Assembly (NCBI RefSeq): GCF_000284115.1 | Contig: NC_017080.1 | Location: 150,001-182,000 of the forward strand | Origin: Phycisphaera mikurensis NBRC 102666 | GTDB lineage: Bacteria; Planctomycetota; Phycisphaerae; Phycisphaerales; Phycisphaeraceae | Direction: 5' to 3' | DNA: 32,000 nt | Part shown: positions 7,802-32,000 of the stretch, one piece after another | Position numbering within the stretch: position 1 is the stretch's first letter | Layout of the letters: the number at the start of each line of letters is the position of its first letter | The notes under the pieces: generated by a model | What the model was told of the DNA's origin: nothing | Databases searched by the model: none | What the model saw: only the letters and a program-made list of their open reading frames with translations | Position numbers and translations under genes: made by a program

Positions 7802-7846
7802 GCCCGCGGACCGTGGGCGAGAACGCGACCCGATGCCGACGGTCCG

Positions 7847-7913
7847 CGGATCCGACGCCGGACCAGGCCCGGACCAGGCCCGGATCCGACCCGGATCGGG
7901 CCCGGATCAGGCC
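7847..7913. repeat. About six tandem copies of an 11-bp unit (consensus CGGAyCnGnCC)
   Basis: Read directly: cggatccgacg(c) cggaccaggcc cggaccaggcc cggatccgacc cggatcgggcc cggatcaggcc. It lies in the convergent spacer between dapB (ends 7801) and the minus-strand ORF whose stop is at 7907-7909. Confidence 0.85.
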
Positions 7914-15797: not shown

Positions 15798-16150
15798 GGC
15801 TGCGGCCCCCGCTTGGCGGCGTCGGCGACGATGCGATCGACCACGGGGAAGCGGGCCCCGCGGACGACGGCGTCGGCCAGGTGCGTCTCGAGCTGCTGAG
15901 CCATCGCGTCCTGCCCGAAGCCGCCGCCGAAGAGGTCGCTCTTGAGGGCCCCGCCGCGGGCTTCGGCCATGAGCGGGAGCAGGAAGGCCGAGGCGACGAA
16001 ACGCTCGGCCGCGACGCGGGCCTCGTCCGCGGCCCTGGCTTCGGCTCGGTCGTGCGCGCCGCGGACCGCGGCGTCGAAAGCGTTCGGACGGCTCCGGTCC
16101 GCGGATCCGCCGGGCCGGTGCCCGCCGGCGGCGAAACCCGGGGAAGCCAT
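15794..16150 (-). CDS. Rod-binding protein (FlgJ N-terminal-domain-like, no muramidase domain)
   Basis: These are the last 118 codons (from ATG 16150) of track ORF 15794..17428. They read AAERFVASAFLLPLMAEARGGALKSDLFGGGFGQDAMAQQLETHLADAVV, matching the rod-binding domain pattern. The rest of that 544-aa track ORF overlaps flgI out of frame and is Arg/Pro/Gly-rich. Confidence 0.6.
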   Translation of the reverse strand: MASPGFAAGGHRPGGSADRSRPNAFDAAVRGAHDRAEARAADEARVAAERFVASAFLLPLMAEARGGALKSDLFGGGFGQDAMAQQLETHLADAVVRGARFPVVDRIVADAAKRGPQP

Positions 16151-17551: not shown

Positions 17552-18538
17552 TCACCCCCCCGCCGCCGGCTCCTGCTGCGAGAGGCAGTGCAAGGCGCCG
17601 AGCCCGACGACGAGCCACTCGGCGCGGACCGGGACGATCCGCAGCTCCGGGGCCGCGCGGTCCGCGGCGGCGAGCGCCGCGTCGTCGCTGGCGCAGCCGA
17701 AGACCGGCAGGAACAGCGAGCCGTTGGAGATCAGGAAGTTCGCGTGGCTGGCCGGCACCAGCTCGCCGGCGGCGGGGTCCTGGCCGAGGCGACCGGTGGC
17801 GGCGTCGTAGAAGAAACCCGGGTCGACCGAGGGCAGCGTGTGGACGTCGAAGCCGCCGTGGGCGCGGAGGGTCTCCAGGTTTTCGCTCAGGGCGTCGTGG
17901 TCGCGGTGCCCGGCCGGCGCCTCCAGCGCCAGCACCGCGTCCTCGGAAACGAACTGCGCGCAGTCGTCCACGTGGCCGTCGGTGTCGTCGCCGCGGATCC
18001 CCTCCCCGAGCCAGACGACGCCGGGGGCGCCGAAGCACTCGGCGAAGAGCCGCTCCACCGAGGCTCTCGTCTCCCCCGGGTTCCGCTCCGCGTCGAGCAG
18101 GCAGGCGGCCGTCGTGAGCACGCTGCCCCGGCCGTTGACGCTGAACGCGCCGCCCTCGAGGAACAGGCCGTGCCGCCAGCGCCGCAGCCCGGGGTGCTGC
18201 TTCTCCACGAAGTCGAGCACGCGGGCGGCCCCCGCGTCCATCCGCGCCCACGGCGGGTACTTCCCGCCCCAGCTGTTGAAGCGGAAGTCGTGGGCGCCGA
18301 GGCCCCCGCGGTCGTCGACGACGAACACCGGGCCCCAGTCGCGGATCCAGGCGTCTTCGGGCCGCGCCTCCGCGACGAGGTCCTGCACGACGGCGACCTC
18401 GACGACCTCGCGCATCGCGTCGACCCACGCCGCGTGCTGCGCCTGCGCCCTCTCCAGCGCCGCCGGCCCGGGCCACGTGTCCGGGTTGTCCGGCCGCGAC
18501 ACCCACACCCGCCGCTGCGGCTCGAACTCGCCGGGCAT
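17552..18538 (-). CDS. aguA: Agmatine deiminase
   Basis: These are the last 328 codons (from ATG 18538) of track ORF 17552..19756. They read MPGEFEPQRRVWVSRP...WIRDWGPVFV...FRFNSWGGKY...GDDTDGHVDD...GLGALHCLSQQEP, with the C-terminal catalytic Cys motif. The upstream part of the track ORF overlaps aguB out of frame. Confidence 0.9.
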   Translation of the reverse strand: MPGEFEPQRRVWVSRPDNPDTWPGPAALERAQAQHAAWVDAMREVVEVAVVQDLVAEARPEDAWIRDWGPVFVVDDRGGLGAHDFRFNSWGGKYPPWARMDAGAARVLDFVEKQHPGLRRWRHGLFLEGGAFSVNGRGSVLTTAACLLDAERNPGETRASVERLFAECFGAPGVVWLGEGIRGDDTDGHVDDCAQFVSEDAVLALEAPAGHRDHDALSENLETLRAHGGFDVHTLPSVDPGFFYDAATGRLGQDPAAGELVPASHANFLISNGSLFLPVFGCASDDAALAAADRAAPELRIVPVRAEWLVVGLGALHCLSQQEPAAGG

Positions 18539-21137: not shown

Positions 21138-21609
21138 GAGAGCGGAGCCGCTCCGCCGGAGGCGGGGGGTGCGACGAACGTACCGGCTCCCTCCGCATCC
21201 CCAGCCCGGCCGGACCGAGGGCGGCGACGCCGCTTGCGGCGGCACCCGCGGACCGCGACTCCTGGCAGCCATCGGGGACGACGGTCCTCGGAATCGATCG
21301 CCCCCCCGGCGCTGCGTCTCGCCCGAACCGCCGCGGCGGCCTCGGGATCCCGGCGGACGGCTACCGCCTGGAACCGTCGGAGCCACCCGCAAAGAGCCCC
21401 TCGCCGGCCTCGCCCGCCTCGAAGCCCACGTGGTCGGCGCCGGCCTTGGTGAGGGCCGTGCGGAGGCCCGAGGTGCATCGCAGCAACCGCCGCACCTTCC
21501 GCGGGAGAGTTCCCGCCTCCGGGCAGGCGCGATGGAGCCATTGAACCCGAACGCAGATCGTCCACAGGTGTCTCGCCGAGCCGGGCCGCAGACCCGTAGA
21601 TTTGCCCGC

Positions 21610-24600
21610 GTGAGCGACGCCTTCTTCCAACGACCGATCCTCAACTCGCCGTACGAGCGACCCACGAAGCACTGGGAGCTGGCGGCCGACGGTCAACCGA
21701 CGCAAAAGGAACGAGACGGCCGCCGGGAGGTCCGCTTCGTCACGCCCATCCCGGCCCCCCGGAAGAAGAGCGGCCAGGAAGGCCTCGGCTTCAACGAAGC
21801 CGAGGAGCTCACCGACGGCGAGCAGCGGTACGAGAAGACCGCCGAGACGATCCGCACGGTCCGGCGCCGCGTGGACGCGTGGCGGAAGCTGCCCGAGACG
21901 CAGTGGAAAGTCACGCCCGAGACCGCCCGCCTGCTGCACCACTGGCGGCGGCCCCAGGAGCACTGGGACGGCCCCCGGCCCTTCTTCTGCCAGCGGGAAG
22001 CGGCCGAGGTCGCGATCTGGCTCACCGAGGTGGCTCCGCAGTCGGGCGTCGAGGCGAAGGCCCTGCTGGAGTTCCTGCACGACGCCAACGAGGGCGCGAA
22101 CCCCGGCCTGCCGCGCCTCGCCCTCAAGCTCGCCACCGGCGCCGGCAAGACCACCGTCATGGCGATGCTGATCGCGTGGCAGACCGTGAACGCCGCCCGT
22201 CGGCCCAGCTCCAAGAACTTCACGCGGGGCTTCCTGATCGTGACGCCGGGGCTGACCATCAAGGACCGCTTACGCGTCCTGCAGCCCAACGACCCGGACA
22301 ACTACTACGAGACCCGCGGGCTGGTCCCGCGCGACCTCCTGCCCGAGGTCCGCAAGGCCACCGTGGTCATCACCAACTACCACACCTTCCAGCTGCGCGA
22401 GACGATGGAGGTGAGCCGGGGCGGCCGGGCCCTCCTGCAGGGCCGCACCGGCGAGGAGATCTCCTCGAAGGAGACGCCCGGCCAGATGCTCCGCCGCGTG
22501 CTCGGTTCGCTGATGGGCCTGCGCGGGTTGGTCGTCATCAACGACGAGGCGCACCACTGCTACCGCGGCAAGCCCGAGGAACAGACCGAGGAGGGCAAGC
22601 TCACCGGCGACGAGCTGCAGGACGCCAAGAGCAACGACGAGGCCGCCCGCGTGTGGATCTCCGGGCTGGAGACCGTGCACGAGCACCTGAAGCTCGCGCG
22701 GATCTACGACCTCTCCGCCACGCCCTTCTTCCTGCGCGGCAGCGGCTACGCCGAGGGCACCCTGTTCCCATGGACGATGAGCGACTTCTCGCTGATGGAC
22801 GCCATCGAGTGCGGCATCGTGAAGCTGCCGCGGGTGCCCGTGGCCGACAACCTCGCCGGCGCTGAGCAGTCCGAGATGCCGAAGTTGCGGGAGTTGTGGA
22901 AGCACATCGGCAAAGCGATGCCCAAGGGCAACCGCAAGAACAGCAAGCTCGACCCCGAAGACCTCCCGCTGCTGCTGCAGACCGCGCTCCAAGCGCTCTA
23001 CGGCCACTACGAGAAGACCCACGCCAAGTGGGAGCAGGCCGCCAGGCGGCGCGGCAAGCGCAGGTGGATCCCCCCCTGCTTCATCGTCGTGTGCAACAAC
23101 ACCGCGACCAGCAAGCTGGTGCACGACTGGATCGCCGGCTGGACCGCCACCGACGAGGACGGCAACGAAGCCCCCCGCTTCGGCCGGCTGGAGCTGTTCC
23201 GCAACACGGACGGGTACGGCCAGCCCCTCGCCCGCCCGCGCACGCTGCTCATCGACTCCGCCCAGCTGGAGAGCGGCGAAGCCATCGACAAGGATTTCCG
23301 CGAGGCCGCGGCCGACGAGATCGATCGGTTCCGCCAGGCGGAGCTCGACCGCGGCCGGTCCGCCGCCGAGGTGGAGACCTTCTCCGACGCCGACCTGCTC
23401 CGCGAGGTGATGAACACCGTGGGCCAGGAGGGCGGGCTGGGCGAGCAGGTCCGCTGCGTGGTCTCGGTCGCGATGCTGACCGAGGGCTGGGACGCCAACA
23501 ACGTCACCCACGTGCTCGGCGTGCGGGCCTTCGGCACCCAGCTGCTCTGCGAGCAGGTGATGGGCCGGGCCCTGCGCCGCCAGAGCTACCAGCTCGGCGA
23601 CGACGGGCTCTTCGGCGTGGAGTACGCCGACGTGCTGGGCATCCCCTTCGACTTCACCGCCGAGCCGGTCGTCGCCCCGGTGCAGGACCTGCCGCAGCGG
23701 ACGCTGGTCCGGGCCGTCAAGCCCGAGCGTGATCCGCTCGCCATCCGCTTCCCCCACGTTCGCGGCTACCGCACCGACTTCCCCGACGAGACGCTCAAGG
23801 TCAGCTTCCGCCCCGAAGATTCGGTTCTCAAGCTCACCCCCGAGCTGGTCGGGCCGACCATCACGCAGAACGCCGGCATCATCGGCGAGGCCGCGCACCT
23901 GGACCTCTCCCACACCGCCGACACGCGGAAGGGCACCATCCTGATGCACCTCGCGAGCCACCTGGTGACCACGAAGCTCAAGGGCGAGGGAGGCCGGCCG
24001 AACTTCCACCTGCTGCCGCGGGCGAAGGCGATCTGCAGCGATTGGATGGACGGCTACCTGAAGTGCGTCGGTGGCACGCACCCGGCGCAGCTGCTCTACA
24101 AGCCGCTGGCGGAGGACGCCTGCCAGAAGATTTTCAACGCCATCACCCGCGGCGCCGGCGAGGCCCCCGTCCTCGCCGTGCTGGATCCCTACAACCCCGA
24201 GGGCTCGACCGCGTCGGTGCACTTCCAGACGTCGAAGCAGGATTTGTGGGACACCGCCGGCTTCGGCGGGGTCGAGGCGCCGGAGGAGTCACCCGAATCT
24301 CCCTCCCCCGCCTGCCGCAACCACGTCAGCCACGTCGTGCTCGACTCCGGCTGGGAGGCCGAGTTCTGCCGCGTCGCCGAGACCCACCCCCGCGTCCTCC
24401 GCTACGTGAAGAACCACGGCCTGGGGCTGGAGATCCCGTACCGGTTCCAGGGGCAACCCCGCCGCTACCGCCCCGACTTCGTCGTCGTCCTCAACGACGG
24501 GAATGGGGCCGAAGACCCCCTCCACTTGCTCGTCGAGGTCAAGGGCTACCGCACCGAGGACGCCAAGGAGAAGCGCCAGGCCGCCGAGACCTTCTGGGTC

Positions 24601-24768
24601 CCGGGCGTCAACCGCCTCGGCGGCTTCGGCCGCTGGGCCTTCGCCGAGTTCGGCAACGTCTTCGCCATGCAGGAGGACTTCGCCGCGGAGGTGGAGAAGA
24701 ACTTTGAAGCGATGGTGGAGGGGGCGTGCGGTCAACCCGCCCACCTAGGAGGCCCCGCCCATGCCTGA
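21610..24768 (+). CDS. res: Type III-like restriction enzyme Res subunit (SF2 helicase + C-terminal PD-(D/E)xK nuclease)
   Basis: Motif I is LKLATGAGKTTVMAM and motif II is VVINDEAHHCY. Later motifs are YDLSATPFF and MLTEGWDANNVTHVLGVRAFGTQLLCEQVMGRALRR. The C-terminal nuclease-like region reads VVLDSGWEAEF...RPDFVVVL...LLVEVKG. I place the start at GTG 21610 (VSDAFFQRPILNSPYERPTKHWEL), which matches the N-terminus I recall for this family. ATG 21532 is an alternative. The track start at 21088 overlaps the sulfatase start and is shadow-like. Confidence 0.85.
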   Translation: MSDAFFQRPILNSPYERPTKHWELAADGQPTQKERDGRREVRFVTPIPAPRKKSGQEGLGFNEAEELTDGEQRYEKTAETIRTVRRRVDAWRKLPETQWKVTPETARLLHHWRRPQEHWDGPRPFFCQREAAEVAIWLTEVAPQSGVEAKALLEFLHDANEGANPGLPRLALKLATGAGKTTVMAMLIAWQTVNAARRPSSKNFTRGFLIVTPGLTIKDRLRVLQPNDPDNYYETRGLVPRDLLPEVRKATVVITNYHTFQLRETMEVSRGGRALLQGRTGEEISSKETPGQMLRRVLGSLMGLRGLVVINDEAHHCYRGKPEEQTEEGKLTGDELQDAKSNDEAARVWISGLETVHEHLKLARIYDLSATPFFLRGSGYAEGTLFPWTMSDFSLMDAIECGIVKLPRVPVADNLAGAEQSEMPKLRELWKHIGKAMPKGNRKNSKLDPEDLPLLLQTALQALYGHYEKTHAKWEQAARRRGKRRWIPPCFIVVCNNTATSKLVHDWIAGWTATDEDGNEAPRFGRLELFRNTDGYGQPLARPRTLLIDSAQLESGEAIDKDFREAAADEIDRFRQAELDRGRSAAEVETFSDADLLREVMNTVGQEGGLGEQVRCVVSVAMLTEGWDANNVTHVLGVRAFGTQLLCEQVMGRALRRQSYQLGDDGLFGVEYADVLGIPFDFTAEPVVAPVQDLPQRTLVRAVKPERDPLAIRFPHVRGYRTDFPDETLKVSFRPEDSVLKLTPELVGPTITQNAGIIGEAAHLDLSHTADTRKGTILMHLASHLVTTKLKGEGGRPNFHLLPRAKAICSDWMDGYLKCVGGTHPAQLLYKPLAEDACQKIFNAITRGAGEAPVLAVLDPYNPEGSTASVHFQTSKQDLWDTAGFGGVEAPEESPESPSPACRNHVSHVVLDSGWEAEFCRVAETHPRVLRYVKNHGLGLEIPYRFQGQPRRYRPDFVVVLNDGNGAEDPLHLLVEVKGYRTEDAKEKRQAAETFWVPGVNRLGGFGRWAFAEFGNVFAMQEDFAAEVEKNFEAMVEGACGQPAHLGGPAHA

Positions 24769-26464
24769 ACATGAATCCGATCCCGTCGTGGTCGAACTTC
24801 TCGCTGCCGTCGAGCACGAAGATCTCGATTTCAAGAAGGCCGAGCGCAGCTTCTCGAAACAGGACCTGCAGGACTACGCCTCCGGGCTCTCCAACATGGA
24901 GGGCGGCCGGCTGATCCTCGGGATCACCGGGCGACGGCCACGGCGTGTCGCTGGCTCCAGCGCCTTCGAGCGGGACTTGGAGCAGCAAGCCCGCGACCTC
25001 GAGAACGCGATCCACGTCTCGATTCGACCCGAAGAGAGATGTCACTTCGGCAAGCGGGTCGTGATTTTCCACATCGCCAAACACCGACTCGGCGTTCCAA
25101 CCTCCAACGGTCGCGGCGGAGCGAAGATGCGTCGGAACGAGGAACTGATCGACCTCACCGAGGAGCGGCGACACGAGATCTGGAATGAGAACTCTGAAGA
25201 CTTCACGGCGCGAACCTGCGCCGGAGCCACGCTGGAGGACCTTGATCCCGAAAGCATCAAGGTCTTTCGTGAAAAGTGGATGGACCGGCTCTCGGGCTCC
25301 AGCCAAAAACGAGATCGCCGCGCGGCGGAGCGTCGAGCGGGTCTTTCAGCCGGCGACTTTCTCGCCGAAGTGGACCTGCTGAGGCCGGAGGGGCCGACCT
25401 ATGCGGCGATGATCCTCTTGGCCACGAGAGCTGCCTTGACCCGCCACCTTGGCAACGCCGAGATCATCTTCGAGTACCGCAGCGGCAGGGCCGCTGGTCC
25501 CGCTGCGGACCGGTTGAACCTGCGGGAGGGCCTGATCGGCTGTTTCGACGAACTCTGGGAGCGGATCAACCTGCGAAACGAACTACAGAGCGTCCAGGAA
25601 GGCCTCTTCCGCGAGCCCATTCCTACGTTTCAGGAAGAACCGATCCGCGAGGTCATGCTCAACGCCGTCGCCCATCGCGACTACACCCACCAAGGCAGCG
25701 TGATGATCAGGCAGTACCCGCGCGAACTGCGGTGTCAGAGCCCCGGCGGCCTTCCACGCGGCGTCACCCTCGCCAACATCTCGGACAGTTCCGTCCCACG
25801 GAACCGCCGGCTGATGGAGGCGCTCCAGGGCTGCGGACTCGTGGAGCGATCCGGCCAGGGCATCGACTTGATGTTCGCATCGTCGGTTCTGGACACCAAG
25901 CCGCTGCCCGATTTTGCCGGCACGGATGCGGACACCGTCGTGGTCACCCTCGGCGGCTCCATCACCTCGCCCGCGTCGATCCTGGCGCTACGCAAGATCG
26001 CCGAGGAACACGGGAGCAACCTCGGGACCGAGGACTTCCGCACGCTCCACCACATCGGCCGCCAAGAACCCGTGCCCGCCGACCTCCAGGTCAGCGCGAG
26101 GCACCTGTTGGACCTCGGGATCGTCGAGTCGCTCGGAGCGGGGAAAGGCCGGCGATTCATCCTCGGCCGGAACTACCGAAAGCTCACCGGCGACCTTGAG
26201 AAGTACACCCAGGAGCGAGGGCTGGACCGGGAGCAGAACGTCCAGCTCCTCTTAAAGCACCTACAGCACTGCGGGAGCGAAGGAGCACAGATCAGCGACC
26301 TTCAGAAGGTTATCCCGGCGCTGAGCCGCGGTCAGATCAAGGCAAGGCTGGCCACGCTCGCCGAGCGTCACCTGGCGCGGCTGGGAACCTCCGACGGGCG
26401 GCTCAGGCGTGGACACCACGCCCGCTGGTTCGTCGTGGAAGACGGTGTGGACGCGGATGATTGA
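24761..26464 (+). CDS. AlbA_2 (Schlafen-like) / HATPase_c_4 domain protein with C-terminal wHTH-like region (putative ATP-binding DNA-binding regulator)
   Basis: 567 aa. The N-terminus (EHEDLDFKKAERSFSKQDLQDYASGLSNMEGGRLILGI) is AlbA_2-like. The central region (MLNAVAHRDYTHQGSVMIRQYP...PRNRRLMEALQGCGLVERSGQGIDLMF) is HATPase_c_4-like. GGAGG at 24748-24752 lies 8 nt before the ATG. The ATG overlaps the res stop (ATGCCTGA). Confidence 0.8.
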   Translation: MPEHESDPVVVELLAAVEHEDLDFKKAERSFSKQDLQDYASGLSNMEGGRLILGITGRRPRRVAGSSAFERDLEQQARDLENAIHVSIRPEERCHFGKRVVIFHIAKHRLGVPTSNGRGGAKMRRNEELIDLTEERRHEIWNENSEDFTARTCAGATLEDLDPESIKVFREKWMDRLSGSSQKRDRRAAERRAGLSAGDFLAEVDLLRPEGPTYAAMILLATRAALTRHLGNAEIIFEYRSGRAAGPAADRLNLREGLIGCFDELWERINLRNELQSVQEGLFREPIPTFQEEPIREVMLNAVAHRDYTHQGSVMIRQYPRELRCQSPGGLPRGVTLANISDSSVPRNRRLMEALQGCGLVERSGQGIDLMFASSVLDTKPLPDFAGTDADTVVVTLGGSITSPASILALRKIAEEHGSNLGTEDFRTLHHIGRQEPVPADLQVSARHLLDLGIVESLGAGKGRRFILGRNYRKLTGDLEKYTQERGLDREQNVQLLLKHLQHCGSEGAQISDLQKVIPALSRGQIKARLATLAERHLARLGTSDGRLRRGHHARWFVVEDGVDADD

Positions 26465-26608: not shown

Positions 26609-29578
26609 ATGGCCCGCAGAAAGAAGCCCAGCAGCCCCAAGCCCGTCGTCGCGCACCGCCACACGGACGCGACGCGGCGGAACATCCCCACGGCGGAGAT
26701 GGAGCCGGTGATGGTGCGGGAGGAGGCCGCACCGAAGGACGTGAAGTACGCCCGGAATCAGCCCGGCGAGGAGGTGCGGGAGGCGATCGAGGCGCGGGAG
26801 CCGGGGCTGGACCCGCAGCTGGTGTGGCGGGGCAAGGACACGCGGCCGTTCTCGGAGCTGGTCGTCAAGGCCCCGCCGCTGTTCATCCAGGAGAAGGTGC
26901 ACCCGCGGGTGCTGGTGGAGGACCTGCGGCGGCAGACCGAGCAGGCGCGGATGGCGAAGGAGATCGCCGGCGGCGGCAGGACCGTCGATGAACAGATCGA
27001 CCTGTTCGCCGACTTCAACGGGCTGCCCGAGGACCCCGACGCCCGGACCGACTTCTACCACCACGACCAGCACTGGTCCAACCGGATGATCCTCGGCGAC
27101 TCGCTGCAGGTGATGGCCTCGCTCGCGGAGCGGGAGGGCCTCCGCGGGAAGGTGCAGGCGATCTACTTCGACCCGCCCTACGGGATCAAGTTCAACAGCA
27201 ACTTCCAGTGGAGCACCACCAGCCGCGACGTGAAGGACGGCAACGCGGAGCACATCACCCGCGACCCCGAGCAGGTCAAGGCCTTCCGCGACACGTGGGA
27301 GGACGGGATCCACAGCTACCTCACCTACCTGCGCGACCGGCTGACCGCCGCGCGGGACCTGCTGACCGAGAGCGGGAGCATCTTCGTGCAGATCGGGGAT
27401 GAGAACGTGCACCGGGTGCGGTGCCTCATGGACGACATCTTTGGCGAGAGCAACTTCCTAGCGTCCATCGGATTCACAAAAACTTCCGTTGGTCTTCAGG
27501 CATCATCTCGAGTCGCCCTAATCTTTGATTCCATTCTTTGGTATTCGAAGGATGAAGGCAAGGGTAAGTTTCGACGTCTGCTAGATCACAAAGGCGAAGG
27601 CTTCGACTCGCAGTATTCGCTTTATCTTGAAGATGATGGGAGCGCACGTGGTCTAACTCCGGAGGAGAAAGACAGCTTCCCCGATAGCATTGACGTCAAT
27701 CGAGTTCTCCAAGCAGATAACCTGACGAAGCCTGGCCCTGGCGCGAAGTATCAAGTTCATTTTCGCGGACAAACTTTTGATCCGGGGAAGAGATGGTGGG
27801 GAACAACCGAAGATAACATGAACCGCCTTTTGAAAGCGGGGCGAGCAGTTATATCGGGAAAGTCTCTTCGATACGCTCGTTTCTTCTCCGATAGCAGGTA
27901 CGGGCAACTAAGCAATATCTGGACTGGGTATCTTGGTCAGAGTTCGCCCACATACGTGGTACAGACCAACACAGATGTAGTTGCCCGTTGCCTCCTCATG
28001 GCCACCGACCCCGGCGACCTCGTGCTCGACCCGACCTGCGGGTCGGGCACCACGGCCACCGTCGCCGAGCAGTGGGGCCGCCGGTGGATCACGATCGACA
28101 CCAGCCGCGTGGCGCTCGCGCTGGCGCGGGCGAGGGTCATGGGGGCCCGCTACCCGTACTACCTGCTGGCCGACTCGCCCGAGGGGGCGAGAAAGGAAGC
28201 CGAGGTCACCCGCTCGGAGGTCCGCTCCGCCCCGGCGGGCGGGCACCGCGACGACCTGAAGCGCGGCTTCGTCTACGAGCGGGTGCCGCACGTGACGCTC
28301 AAGTCGATCGCGAACAACAGCGAGATCGACGTGATCTGGGAGAACTTCCAGGAGACGCTGGAGCCGCTGCGGGAACAGCTCAACGAGGCGCTCGGGACCT
28401 CCTGGGAGGAGTGGGAGATCCCACGGACCTGGGAAGAAGCCGTTGCCCGGGTGCCACGCCCTCCAGGGGGTGGTGAAACCGGTTCCGCGGAAGAAGACCC
28501 ACCCCCTGGAGGGCGTGGCACCCAGGAGGCGGAGGAGCTGCACGCGTCGTGGTGGGAGGCGCGGATCGCGCGGCAGAGAGAGATCGACGCCTCCATCGCC
28601 GCCAAGGCCGACTCCGAGTTCCTCTACGACAAGCCCTATGAGGACCGAAAGAAGGTTCGCGTGGCCGGGCCCTTCACCGTGGAGAGCCTCTCACCGCACC
28701 GGATGCTCGGCACCGACGAGAACGGCGGCCCGGTGGACTACGCCCCGGATGCCGCCTCCGCGGGATCCGCCGCCGTCGCGGCGGGGGACTTCAGTTCGAT
28801 GATCCTCTCGAACCTCCGCTCCGCGGGGGTGCAGCAGGCGGACAAGGGGGACCGCATCGAGTTCGACTCGCTGGAGCCGTGGCCGGGGAAGATGATCGCC
28901 GCCGAGGGCCGGTACACCCGCGACGGGAAGACCCGCCGGCTCGCGGTGCTCATCGGCCCGGAGTTCGGTGCCCTCCGCCAGAACGACCTGACCGTCGCCG
29001 CCGTCGAGGCCGCCGAGAGCGGCTTCGACGGCCTGCTCGCCTGCGGCTTCGCCTACGAGGCCAACACCAGCGACCTCACGCGCGTCGGCCGCATCGACGT
29101 CATCAAGGCCCGCATGAACGCGGACCTGCACATGGCGGACCTGAAGAACACCGGCGCCGGCAACCTGTTCGTCGTCTTCGGCGAGCCCGACATCGAGGTG
29201 CTGCCCCCGGAGGACGCGCCCGACGGTGCCGACCCCGCCGACTACGACGCCATCCGCGTCCGCGTCCGCGGGGTGGACGTGTTCGATCCGAAAACAGGAA
29301 AAGTCCGCAGCGACTCGGCGGACGGCATCGCCTGCTGGTTCGTCGACACCGACTACAACCAGGAGAGCTTCTTCGTGCGGCAGGCGTACTTCCTGGGCGC
29401 CGGCGACCCGTACAAGAGTCTGAAGACCACGCTGAAGGCCGAGATCGACCGCGACGCGTGGGAGACGCTGAACTCCGACGTGAGCCGGGCGTTCCCCAAG
29501 CCGGAGGGCGGCCGCATCGCCGTGAAGGTCATCAACCACCTCGGCGACGAGGCGCTGAAGGTGTTTCGGGTGGGGTGA
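26609..29578 (+). CDS. mod: Site-specific DNA methyltransferase, beta-class (Type III Mod-like), probably N6-adenine
   Basis: 989 aa. Motif IV IYFDPPYG (DPPY at 27170-27181) precedes motif I LVLDPTCGSGTTATVAEQWGRRWITID (about 28020-28100), which is the beta permutation. The family-typical N-terminus reads NIPTAEME...LVWRGKD. The ~340-aa C-terminal extension ends KVINHLGDEALKVFRVG. Confidence 0.9.
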   Translation: MARRKKPSSPKPVVAHRHTDATRRNIPTAEMEPVMVREEAAPKDVKYARNQPGEEVREAIEAREPGLDPQLVWRGKDTRPFSELVVKAPPLFIQEKVHPRVLVEDLRRQTEQARMAKEIAGGGRTVDEQIDLFADFNGLPEDPDARTDFYHHDQHWSNRMILGDSLQVMASLAEREGLRGKVQAIYFDPPYGIKFNSNFQWSTTSRDVKDGNAEHITRDPEQVKAFRDTWEDGIHSYLTYLRDRLTAARDLLTESGSIFVQIGDENVHRVRCLMDDIFGESNFLASIGFTKTSVGLQASSRVALIFDSILWYSKDEGKGKFRRLLDHKGEGFDSQYSLYLEDDGSARGLTPEEKDSFPDSIDVNRVLQADNLTKPGPGAKYQVHFRGQTFDPGKRWWGTTEDNMNRLLKAGRAVISGKSLRYARFFSDSRYGQLSNIWTGYLGQSSPTYVVQTNTDVVARCLLMATDPGDLVLDPTCGSGTTATVAEQWGRRWITIDTSRVALALARARVMGARYPYYLLADSPEGARKEAEVTRSEVRSAPAGGHRDDLKRGFVYERVPHVTLKSIANNSEIDVIWENFQETLEPLREQLNEALGTSWEEWEIPRTWEEAVARVPRPPGGGETGSAEEDPPPGGRGTQEAEELHASWWEARIARQREIDASIAAKADSEFLYDKPYEDRKKVRVAGPFTVESLSPHRMLGTDENGGPVDYAPDAASAGSAAVAAGDFSSMILSNLRSAGVQQADKGDRIEFDSLEPWPGKMIAAEGRYTRDGKTRRLAVLIGPEFGALRQNDLTVAAVEAAESGFDGLLACGFAYEANTSDLTRVGRIDVIKARMNADLHMADLKNTGAGNLFVVFGEPDIEVLPPEDAPDGADPADYDAIRVRVRGVDVFDPKTGKVRSDSADGIACWFVDTDYNQESFFVRQAYFLGAGDPYKSLKTTLKAEIDRDAWETLNSDVSRAFPKPEGGRIAVKVINHLGDEALKVFRVG
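28449..28523. repeat. Perfect 25-bp inverted repeat with 25-nt spacer (75 bp total) inside the mod coding sequence
   Basis: Arm 1 (28449-28473) is gggtgccacgccctccagggggtgg. Arm 2 (28499-28523) is ccaccccctggagggcgtggcaccc, verified base by base as the exact reverse complement. The loop tgaaaccggttccgcggaagaagac contains the palindromes aaccggtt and ccgcgg. Confidence 0.95.
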
Positions 29579-29662: not shown

Positions 29663-30859
29663 GTGGACGCCGCCTCCAACCCTTTCGAGCCCGGTGCGGG
29701 CAACCAGCCGCCCGAGCTGGCAGGCCGGGACGAAGTGCGTGAGAAGGTGCGGATCGCGCTGGAGCGAGCCAAGCGTGGCCGCTCCGCCCGCGGGCTGATC
29801 CTGCCGGGCCTGCGTGGCGTGGGCAAGACGGTGCTGCTGCGGCAGATCGGCCGCGACGCGGCGGCCGCGGGCGGGGTGGTGGTGACGCTGGAGGCGCCGG
29901 AGCAGCGTTCCCTGCCGGCACTGCTGATCCCGCAGCTGCGGGTGGCGCTGCTGCAGCTCTCCCGCGTGGCCGCCGCGAAGGAACACGCGGAGCGGGCGAT
30001 GCGGGTGCTGACCGGCTTCACCCGGGCCCTGCGGGTCAAGTACCAGGACATCGAGGTCAGCCTCTCGGGCGAGGCCGAGGAGGGCTTCGGAGACAACGGT
30101 GACCTGGAGCAGGACCTGCAGACGTTGCTCGTGCAGGTGGGCGCCGCGGCCGCCGCGGCGAGGAAGCCGGTGCTGATCCTGATCGACGAGCTGCAGTACG
30201 TGAAGGTGACCGAGCTGGGCGCCCTGCTGTCCGCCAGCCACCGGCTCAGCCAGGAAGCGCTGCCGGTGATGCTGATCGGAGCGGGCCTGCCCCAGTTGCT
30301 CGCCCGCATGGCGAAGGCGAAGTCCTACGCGGAGCGGCTCTTCGAGTACCCGCGGGTCGATGCGCTGCCCGAGGAGGCCGCCCGCCGGGCGCTGGTGAAG
30401 CCCGCCGCGGACGAGGGAGCCGCCTTCGAGGAGGAAGCCCTCGCCGAGATCCTCCGCCAGACCCGCGGCTACCCGTACTTCCTCCAAGAGTGGGGCAAGC
30501 ACGCCTGGGACTTCGCCGAGCGGTCGCCGATCACGCTCGACGACGTGGTGGCCGCTTCGGCCGCGGCCGTCTTGGCGCTGGACGAGGGCTTCTTCCGCGT
30601 GCGGCTCGACCGCGTGACGCCGATGGAGCGGCGCTACCTCCGGGCCATGGCCGAGCTTGGAGAGGGGCCGCACCGCTCCGGCGACGTGGCCGAGCAGATG
30701 AACCGCTCGCTGGAATCGCTGGGTTCCACCCGAGACAAACTCATCCGCAAGGGGATGATCTGGAGCCCGGCGTACGCGGAGATCGCGTTCACGGTGCCGA
30801 TGTTCGACCGCTACCTGAAGCGGGTGATCCCGGACGCGGAGGCGGACGAAGAGCCGTGA
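29663..30859 (+). CDS. AAA/ORC-Cdc6-like ATPase with C-terminal wHTH-like region
   Basis: 398 aa with a GTG start. The N-terminus is NPFEPGAGNQPPELAGRDEV, Walker A is LPGLRGVGKTVLL and Walker B is PVLILIDELQYV. The C-terminal region reads TPMERRYLRAMAELGEGPHRSGDVAEQM...TRDKLIRKGMIWSP. Confidence 0.8.
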   Translation: MDAASNPFEPGAGNQPPELAGRDEVREKVRIALERAKRGRSARGLILPGLRGVGKTVLLRQIGRDAAAAGGVVVTLEAPEQRSLPALLIPQLRVALLQLSRVAAAKEHAERAMRVLTGFTRALRVKYQDIEVSLSGEAEEGFGDNGDLEQDLQTLLVQVGAAAAAARKPVLILIDELQYVKVTELGALLSASHRLSQEALPVMLIGAGLPQLLARMAKAKSYAERLFEYPRVDALPEEAARRALVKPAADEGAAFEEEALAEILRQTRGYPYFLQEWGKHAWDFAERSPITLDDVVAASAAAVLALDEGFFRVRLDRVTPMERRYLRAMAELGEGPHRSGDVAEQMNRSLESLGSTRDKLIRKGMIWSPAYAEIAFTVPMFDRYLKRVIPDAEADEEP

Positions 30860-32000
30860 TCTTCCTCCTCGCCGACACGCTAACCCGAGCGCTCGCGAAG
30901 CTCACGAACCAGGAGCAGAAGCGGGTGAAGCTCACGTGCTTCCAGCTTCAAGTGGACCCCACCGGACACGGACTCCAGAAGCACCGAATCGACCATGGGA
31001 AGGACCCCAACTTCTGGTCGGCGCGTGTCAGCCGCGACCTCCGGCTGATCCTTCACCAGACGGGCAGCAGCCTCCTCGCGTGCTACGCCGGGCACCACGA
31101 CGACGCGTACGCGTGGGCGCAGCGCCGGCGGCTGGAGACGCACCCGCGGACGGGGGCGGCGCAGCTGGTGGAGGTGCGCGAAGCGGTGGAGGAAGCAAAT
31201 CCGCGGACCGTGGCCGAAAACGAGGAAACACCGCCACGGTCCGCGGATTCGGCGCCGGGAGTGCCGATCTTCCGGGGGGAGAGCGACGAGCGGCTGCTGT
31301 CCTTTGGCGTGCCGGAGGACTGGCTGCCCGACGTGAAGGCGGTGGTGGACGAGGACGCGCTGCTGGCCCTGGCCGACCGGCTGCCGGCGGAGGCGGCGGA
31401 GGCGCTCCTGTCGCTGGCGGTGGGCGAGGAGCCGGAAGTCACGCCGGCGACCGAGCCCGCTACGCCGGAGGAGGCCCTCGCCCACCCCGACGCTCGGCGC
31501 CGCTTCCACCTGATCGAGAACGATGCGGAGCTGGAGCGGGCCCTGGAGGCACCCGCCGACGGCTGGGCGGTGTTCCTGCACCCCAGCCAGCGGAGAATCG
31601 TCGACGCGACGCCGGCGGGGCCGACGCGGGTGGCCGGCTCGGCGGGCACGGGCAAGACGGTGGTGGCGCTGCACCGGGCGGCGCGGGTCCTGGCGCAGCG
31701 GCCCGAGGCCCGGGTGTTGCTCACAACCTTCGACCCGGTGCTGGCCCGGCAGCTGCGGCGGAAGATGAGCCTGCTGCTGGACGAGGACGCGAGGAAGCGG
31801 CTGGTGGTCAGGTCGCTCGACGACTTCGCGCTCGATCACCACGAGGCGGCAGTGGGCAGCGTGACCGTCGCCACCCGGGGCATGGTCCGCCGGGCGGTGG
31901 AGGACGCGCACGCGGGAGCTGCCCACGCGTTCCCGTGGCTCTCGCCGGAGCTGCTCGAGAGCGAGTGGCGGGACGTGGTGGACGCGTGGCAGATTGAGTC
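30856..32000 (+). CDS. UvrD-type (SF1) helicase with RelE/ParE-like N-terminal domain; 3' end beyond window
   Basis: Absent from the track because it is open at the window end. My translation from GTG 30856 is stop-free to 32000. It reads VIFLLADTLTRALAKLTNQEQKRVKLTCFQLQVDPTGHGLQKHRIDHGKDPNFWSARVSRDLRLILHQTGSSLLACYAGHHDDAYAWAQRRRLETHPRTGAAQLVEV... then an acidic/Pro linker, then FLHPSQRRIVDATPAGPTRVAGSAGTGKTVVALHRAARVLA (Walker A). The GTG overlaps the ATPase TGA (GTGA). Confidence 0.75.
   Translation, partial: MIFLLADTLTRALAKLTNQEQKRVKLTCFQLQVDPTGHGLQKHRIDHGKDPNFWSARVSRDLRLILHQTGSSLLACYAGHHDDAYAWAQRRRLETHPRTGAAQLVEVREAVEEANPRTVAENEETPPRSADSAPGVPIFRGESDERLLSFGVPEDWLPDVKAVVDEDALLALADRLPAEAAEALLSLAVGEEPEVTPATEPATPEEALAHPDARRRFHLIENDAELERALEAPADGWAVFLHPSQRRIVDATPAGPTRVAGSAGTGKTVVALHRAARVLAQRPEARVLLTTFDPVLARQLRRKMSLLLDEDARKRLVVRSLDDFALDHHEAAVGSVTVATRGMVRRAVEDAHAGAAHAFPWLSPELLESEWRDVVDAWQIE

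Follow-up and report, generated by a model that had tools for sequence, protein, structure and literature searches.

We found a perfect 75-bp palindrome inside mod, the type III DNA methyltransferase gene of Phycisphaera mikurensis NBRC 102666, within the 32,000-nucleotide stretch of chromosomal DNA analysed here (the window; contig NC_017080.1, positions 150,001 to 182,000). The palindromic unit, which we named E1, occupies positions 28449-28523 of the window. It lengthens, by exactly 25 codons, the linker between the methylase core of the protein and its C-terminal region. With a probability of roughly 0.55, we read E1 as a palindrome of the repetitive extragenic palindromic (REP) dimer type, or of the type of a small miniature inverted-repeat transposable element (MITE), that was inserted in one step into a permissive linker and is now carried as translated passenger DNA. 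We favour this reading because the insertion is clean, its codon composition is foreign, other hairpins occur in the same linker, repeats of the host lie within genes, the reading frames of the palindrome are open, REP dimers are documented inside genes and the inserted peptide is predicted to be coil.

The structure of E1 was examined by direct reading, by a repeat finder and by a 25-mer search, and all three bore out the arms and loop given in a preliminary description made from the DNA letters. The reverse complement of arm 1 (GGGTGCCACGCCCTCCAGGGGGTGG, 28449-28473) matches arm 2 (CCACCCCCTGGAGGGCGTGGCACCC, 28499-28523) at every position, and the 25-nt loop between them (TGAAACCGGTTCCGCGGAAGAAGAC, also given as tgaaaccggttccgcggaagaagac in the arm/loop/arm reading; 28474-28498) encodes ETGSAEED; none of these features is assigned to a strand. 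The repeat finder returned 28-nt arms with 96% complementarity (28446-28473 / 28499-28526), a 25-nt perfect core and 25 nt in between. In the extended palindrome (28446-28526, again without strand), a single position is mismatched, the central one of CCCGG / CCAGG. Both nested palindromes previously noticed in the loop, AACCGGTT and CCGCGG, are present, and CCGCGG lies inside a 10-nt palindrome, TTCCGCGGAA. When up to 3 mismatches were allowed, the two arms were the sole matches of the 25-mer search, with 0 expected from 100 shuffles.

Next, we asked how far such a stem exceeds chance. The folded RNA of E1 reached -76.8 kcal/mol (z = -7.1), and 0 of 200 shuffles were equally stable; the DNA fold reached -40.3 kcal/mol (z = -8.5). 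For genomic comparisons we added flanking sequence from L121 and L132 to the window, which gave a stretch of 47.8 kb. In 40 first-order Markov simulations of this length and composition, the longest perfect hairpin arm that arose by chance was 11-15 nt. The length of E1 is far beyond chance and non-random, and the claim of a very stable stem well outside random expectation holds on shuffles, simulations and both kinds of fold. On translation, all but one of the six reading frames of E1 are free of stop codons. The frame in use codes for R614(part)-VPRPPGGGETGSAEEDPPPGGRGT-Q639(part). As a separate observation, the 8-mer GGAAGAAG occurs just upstream of E1 (28429-28442, ctGGGAAGAAGcc) and again in its loop (28487-28500, gcGGAAGAAGac). 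The resulting direct repeat is A-rich and, in a GC-rich sequence such as this, rare; Glu-Glu codons alone may account for both occurrences.

We then compared the linker with its counterparts in other Mod proteins. It spans residues 607-644 (TWEE...AEEL; 28427-28540, + strand) between the conserved EWEIPR and HASWW motifs, and an alignment of 28 homologues identified the segment from EWEIPR to (L)HAxWW as the most variable part of the protein. A regular-expression search between these motifs gave a linker of 13 residues in 69 of the 120 best homologues, and most of the 22 sequences missed by the expression also had 13 residues when inspected by eye. The linker of the window Mod has 38 residues, which is the modal 13 plus exactly 25. 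In silico deletion of 28449-28523 leaves TWEEAVAQEAEEL, again of 13 residues, with the conserved A and L in register. By this alignment E1 is a clean in-frame insertion of 25 codons, as had been proposed. Because the nearest homologue outside the species is only 67% identical, the ancestral state of the linker cannot be read from a sister sequence, and homologues at this identity or below are without E1.

The insertion left the protein in one piece. The open reading frame is intact over 989 residues, and the domains on both sides of E1 are conserved. The full-length PADLOC match to the type III methyltransferase profile is split near residue 607, in agreement with the proposed position between the methylase core and the C-terminal region. 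An AlphaFold (AF2) model built from the 28-sequence alignment was poor overall (mean predicted local distance difference test score, pLDDT, 53; predicted template modelling score 0.30); in this same poor model, helices 608-614 and 639-672 enclose a coil of residues 615-638 whose pLDDT is below 50, in line with the disorder expected of the inserted stretch. In one homologue, P0102, the linker reaches 110 residues made of tandem peptide repeats (GKTAGNA/TGKTAGN..., then SLREGKT three times), and the linker therefore also tolerates tandem-repeat expansion.

Codon composition separates E1 from the gene around it. The G+C content at third codon positions (GC3) is 0.50 in E1, low in arm 1, loop and arm 2 alike, and 0.83 upstream and 0.94 downstream in the flanking parts of mod. 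Because GC3 is low throughout, no part of E1 looks like old coding sequence. This composition favours a single arrival of the complete unit as non-coding DNA and speaks against inverted duplication of a linker segment that was already there.

The linker DNA of eight Mod homologues with longer linkers was folded. In P0104 (L137), the linker carries GTAGGGTGGGCTTCAGCCCACCATC-N17 and the exact reverse complement, with 25-nt arms, a GTAG tag and a strong folding excess (z = -10.7), and each arm contains a significant stem-loop of its own (z = -4.1). The linker of P0017 (L138) also forms a strong hairpin (z = -9.1). P0095 and P0041 (L130/L131/L140) share an inverted pair resembling a REP heterodimer (z = -4.4 and -2.8, respectively); its units keep their own stems, TTCCGGC/GCCGGAA versus CCCCGGC/GCCGGGG, and the pair is older. 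A 9-bp stem was found in P0025 (L134). P0013 and P0059 (L135/L136) share a weaker signal (z = -1.4 and -2.9) that is consistent with a decayed palindrome. A control, the 61-residue helical insert of P0018, showed no excess folding (z = -0.1). Since hairpins were found in several lineages, the Mod linker has taken unrelated palindromic inserts repeatedly. These inserts form a series from perfect to decayed with E1 at its fresh end, and the linker is a recurrent site of landing or retention for palindromic repeats. Elsewhere in P0013, at about 3640-3790 of L135, an earlier linker carries a second in-frame hairpin insert after KEAEITR, with a 15-bp perfect stem (CCGACGAGCCGCGCA / TGCGCGGCTCGTCGG) and a nested inner hairpin; the segment from KEAEITR to GFVYERV folds at -84 kcal/mol.

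The host genome carries hairpin-forming repeats of its own. Among the perfect hairpins in the 47.8 kb, two were far above chance, E1 and a second palindrome, E2 (31198-31249; arms AATCCGCGGACCGTGGC / GCCACGGTCCGCGGATT of 17 nt, loop of 18 nt). E2 lies 2.7 kb from E1, in frame (NPRTVAENEETPPRSAD) in a variable linker of a UvrD-like helicase gene; with E2, the length of that linker is within the range of homologues, so that E2 is not a simple gain in length. E2 belongs to a dispersed REP-like family, CCGCGGACCG-N26-CGGTCCGCGG. The 10-mer CCGCGGACCG occurs 17 times in the 47.8 kb, with five exact pairs in a fixed 36-nt register and two further pairs with one mismatch, and a profile search added two more copies, for about nine in total. 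Copies were located at window coordinates 7804-7849, 16059-16104, 17622-17667, 21246-21291, 31201-31246 and 32618-32664, and also at 19324-19369 of L121 and about 18585-18638 of L132. Copies share the length of the spacer but not its sequence, and AT[CT]C often follows the unit. Several copies lie directly 3' of genes (dapB, flgI and a GGDEF/EAL gene), one of them beginning two bases past the dapB stop codon and another 75 nt past that of flgI; others are intragenic. By analogy with the placement described in PMC3733652, this is REP-like behaviour. The family had no match in IMG/VR, and we found no paper tying Phycisphaera to REP-type repeats. This family resembles E1 in forming hairpins, in residing in the same host and in having copies within genes, including the in-frame copy in the UvrD-like gene, whereas its arms are conserved and 10 nt long and those of E1 are 25 nt long and unrelated in sequence.

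Palindromes that insert in frame are documented in several families. Rickettsia palindromic elements (RPEs) are imperfect, multi-copy palindromes of about 100-150 bp found in the small AT-rich genomes of obligate intracellular alphaproteobacteria. Like E1, they are palindromic, translated and inserted in frame at permissive surface positions of functional genes (PMC3733652). The analogy with RPEs drawn in the preliminary description is apt in this respect, as E1 too is an in-frame insertion at a permissive site of a gene for a functional protein. In contrast to RPEs, E1 is a perfect, GC-rich palindrome of 75 bp in a free-living planctomycete, present as a single copy in the sequence searched so far, and its membership of an RPE family is implausible given the organism and the base composition. 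The view that nothing comparable is known is not supported: Di Nocera et al. (2013, PMC3733652) described REPs and REP dimers within genes of several phyla, encoding 20-30 residues and frequently located in genes of DNA repair, UvrD among them, and independent hairpin inserts occur in the same linker of other Mods. In REP dimers, inverted units separated by a 20-100 bp spacer form one long hairpin, and most members lie just 3' of genes (PMC3733652). The layout of E1, with inverted 25-nt units, a 25-nt spacer and one hairpin, fits that of a REP dimer or REP doublet forming a hairpin (REPIN), and intragenic members of these groups likewise form a long hairpin from inverted units, in frame in genes for known proteins, many of them in DNA metabolism. 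In MITEs, the terminal inverted repeats measure 15-30 bp and the whole element 70-300 bp; they have no coding capacity of their own and can insert in frame. The perfect 25-bp terminal repeats of E1 and its overall length of 75 bp fit these dimensions. Unlike typical MITEs, E1 is at the extreme lower size limit and has no known parent insertion sequence with matching ends.

We propose the following course of events for the favoured reading. A pre-formed 75-bp palindrome of non-coding origin, one of the miniature hairpin elements of REP-dimer/REPIN or small-MITE kind, would have entered the hypervariable linker between two helices of a type III Mod in a single in-frame step. It would have survived there by virtue of a length that is a multiple of three, a stop-free frame in the orientation in which it landed and translation into a flexible loop rich in Pro, Gly and Glu, at a position that seems to tolerate almost any insert in the Mod family. 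E1 would since have been kept as translated passenger DNA, and not as a device of the restriction-modification (R-M) system; effects of the 25-bp duplex on mod mRNA, as a plausible RNase III substrate or ribosome obstacle, would be side effects if they occur at all. What the data show directly is the palindrome itself, the clean gain of 25 codons, the foreign composition of these codons and a linker that is permissive and has been hit repeatedly; derivation from a dispersed repeat family and absence of function are inferred.

Several observations weigh against this reading. The arms of E1 are perfect over 25 of 25 positions, which is unusual for old copies of a repeat and fits a very recent or a local event equally well. 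The search for further arm copies suggested in the preliminary description was carried out on the 47.8 kb and was negative there: no second copy of E1 was found with up to 7 mismatches in 25, nor one of its loop. An exact 20-mer gave 5 matches in JGI metagenomes and 2 in IMG/VR, all of them chance matches in unrelated coding sequence with no partner arm, and BLASTN of E1 against PLSDB plasmids gave no match. The ends of E1 (GGGTG... / ...CACCC) lack the GTAG or CGTC tag of REP units. Folded singly, an arm reaches -12 kcal/mol as CCAC.CCC/GGG.GTGG, a value equalled in 12% of shuffles, which leaves the arms unconvincing as REP units. There is no clear target-site duplication; the flanks CCCGG / CCAGG match at 4 of 5 positions and are readable either as an extension of the arms or as an imperfect 5-bp duplication. 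An nhmmer profile made from 6 copies of the CCGCGGACCG family recovered other copies at E = 2.6e-10 to 8e-4 and E1 at E = 58; by this profile we rejected E1 as a variant of the family, a candidate raised by CGGTTCCGCGG in the loop, which is one inserted base from the core. No REP-associated tyrosine transposase (RAYT, of the IS200/IS605-type Y1 kind) appears in the gene lists of the 47.8 kb. For the REP-like insert of P0095, too, a search of 22.9 kb of the genome it comes from brought no further copy; absence within a few tens of kb is for this reason weak evidence either way. In wider searches, the 17-mer TGCCACGCCCTCCAGGG had at least 120 matches in a genome collection; among the matches listed, all were single chance matches, none had a partner arm and P. 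mikurensis was not included. Concatenated open-frame translations of E1 had no protein match at E<=10 in a search insensitive enough to miss the self-match as well.

The most serious competitor, which we regard as unlikely, is that E1 was made locally by an error of replication or repair, through template switching or fold-back priming, and is a singleton and not a mobile element. Template-switch hairpins resemble E1 in that a single event yields a perfect stem (Mönttinen and Löytynoja, PMC8794818; Löytynoja and Goldman, PMC5453318), and further switching keeps their arms identical (PMC8794818, PMC5453318). More generally, template switching creates perfect hairpins de novo and homogenises the arms of inverted repeats (PMC8794818, PMC8604942, PMC5453318). 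The identity of the E1 arms, the lack of a second copy in the 47.8 kb, JGI metagenomes or IMG/VR, and a single arm that is not REP-like by itself would all fit such an origin. However, template-switch hairpins copy neighbouring sequence, and the process requires a pre-existing arm and usually a spacer too, whereas the arms and loop of E1 look foreign to the frame, with GC3 near 0.5 in every part against 0.83-0.94 in the flanks. The excess over the modal linker is the whole 75 bp, not one arm, and an arm-plus-loop intermediate with 50 extra nt would frameshift the C-terminal region of 350 residues. In addition, other lineages gained complete palindromes of repeat type at this position, for example the GTAG-tagged dimer of P0104.

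Much less probable is a functional role, in which E1 would act as an intragenic RNA or DNA signal, such as an RNase III or other processing site or a ribosome-pausing site, that tunes Mod or truncates its C-terminal region. A perfect 25-bp duplex in mRNA is a plausible substrate for RNase III cleavage. The hairpin is very stable, it lies exactly at a domain boundary as judged from the PADLOC break and the predicted model, and its perfect arms could reflect selection. Against such a role, E1 is not conserved, being absent from the closest homologues (<=67% identity), and the inserts that other lineages carry in this linker are unrelated in sequence and decay over time. No Rfam family scored above threshold, with only generic miRNA-hairpin noise, and on the coding strand the stem lacks a U-tract after it. 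The regulatory roles suggested earlier are thus left without support. An intrinsic terminator was considered separately and rejected, there being no T-run after the full stem on the + strand and the sole flagged site being a 6-bp sub-stem on the - strand. We give a similarly low weight to the joint proposition that the EWEIPR/LHAxWW linker is actively targeted by hairpin elements across phyla and that the stem of E1 is functional.

We also considered E1 as a recombination substrate, either an invertase or resolvase site or a switch that alters Mod by loop inversion. In some phase-variable R-M systems the invertible segments are bounded by inverted repeats, and inversion of the loop would keep the frame open (VPRPPGGG-SSSAEPVS-PPPGGRGT by translation). 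We hold this to be very improbable: just 8 residues of a disordered loop would change, the target-recognition region is elsewhere in Mod, the gene lists of the locus contain no recombinase gene, and E1 is in one orientation in all three assemblies examined, namely the 3.80-Mb chromosome (P0001), GCA_014207395.1 (L121) and a Logan assembly of SRR12223476 (L122). A sequencing or assembly artefact can be dismissed because E1 is identical in these three assemblies, one of which was assembled separately from raw reads, and because E1 preserves the reading frame.

The host gene belongs to a type III R-M locus. The mod gene (26609-29578, + strand; 989 residues) encodes a protein 100% identical to a P. 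mikurensis protein, with a PF01555 N6_N4_Mtase domain (E = 5.8e-32) and a match to PADLOC MTase_III PDLC03632 (1224 bits). Its core resembles that of EcoP15I Mod (structure 4zcf), and none of the solved structures spans the Mod linker or the C-terminal region. The res gene of the same system (21610-24768, + strand; 1052 residues) was identified by gene call and Pfam in L121 and by PADLOC as REase_III; Res carries a PF04851 ResIII helicase domain above the Pfam cut-off, and its C-terminal match to PF19778 RE_endonuc scores 21.7 bits, just under the cut-off of 23.4. The methylase domain, the full-length profile match and a Res alongside, with its sub-threshold RE_endonuc match, identify the gene as a type III mod. 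The gene that separates res from mod (24761 to 26464) is a Schlafen/AlbA_2-HATPase_c_4 gene and shares 8 nt with the end of res; by gene list and Pfam, mod is followed by an AAA_16 ATPase gene (within 29663-32000) and by the UvrD-like helicase gene, which extends from 30856 past the end of the window. The order of res and mod is kept in homologous loci, and the intervening and following cargo genes differ, with PIN, DUF4062, DUF4268 and AAA_15/21 with DUF4276 at the same positions. In the UvrD-like helicase, about 110 conserved residues at the N-terminus have no Pfam match. The 25-28 kb region is lower in G+C than the rest of the window, with the 27-28 kb bin the lowest at 0.572. Within mod, GC3 of the central variable part (27209-27808, nt 600-1200 of the gene) is 0.67, compared with 0.83-0.98 elsewhere in the gene. 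This part is presumably the target-recognition region, and its composition suggests a swapped or recently gained segment.

In-frame palindromic inserts are already known from Rickettsia and from REP families; what is new here is the planctomycete host and the R-M gene. On the favoured reading, E1 would be a clean and very young case of a non-coding palindrome turned into protein sequence in one step, and the linker inserts across homologues would provide a time series of such DNA ageing into ordinary linker peptide. The process known from Rickettsia and from proteobacterial REPs would then also occur in planctomycete genomes and in R-M genes. The understanding of type III R-M is unchanged unless the hairpin affects mod expression. 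Two by-products are more useful: hairpin inserts have come to occupy this linker again and again in different lineages, and P. mikurensis carries the REP-like CCGCGGACCG-N26 family. In annotating defence genes, it should be borne in mind that 'disordered' inserts rich in Pro and Gly may represent translated repeats and not functional modules.

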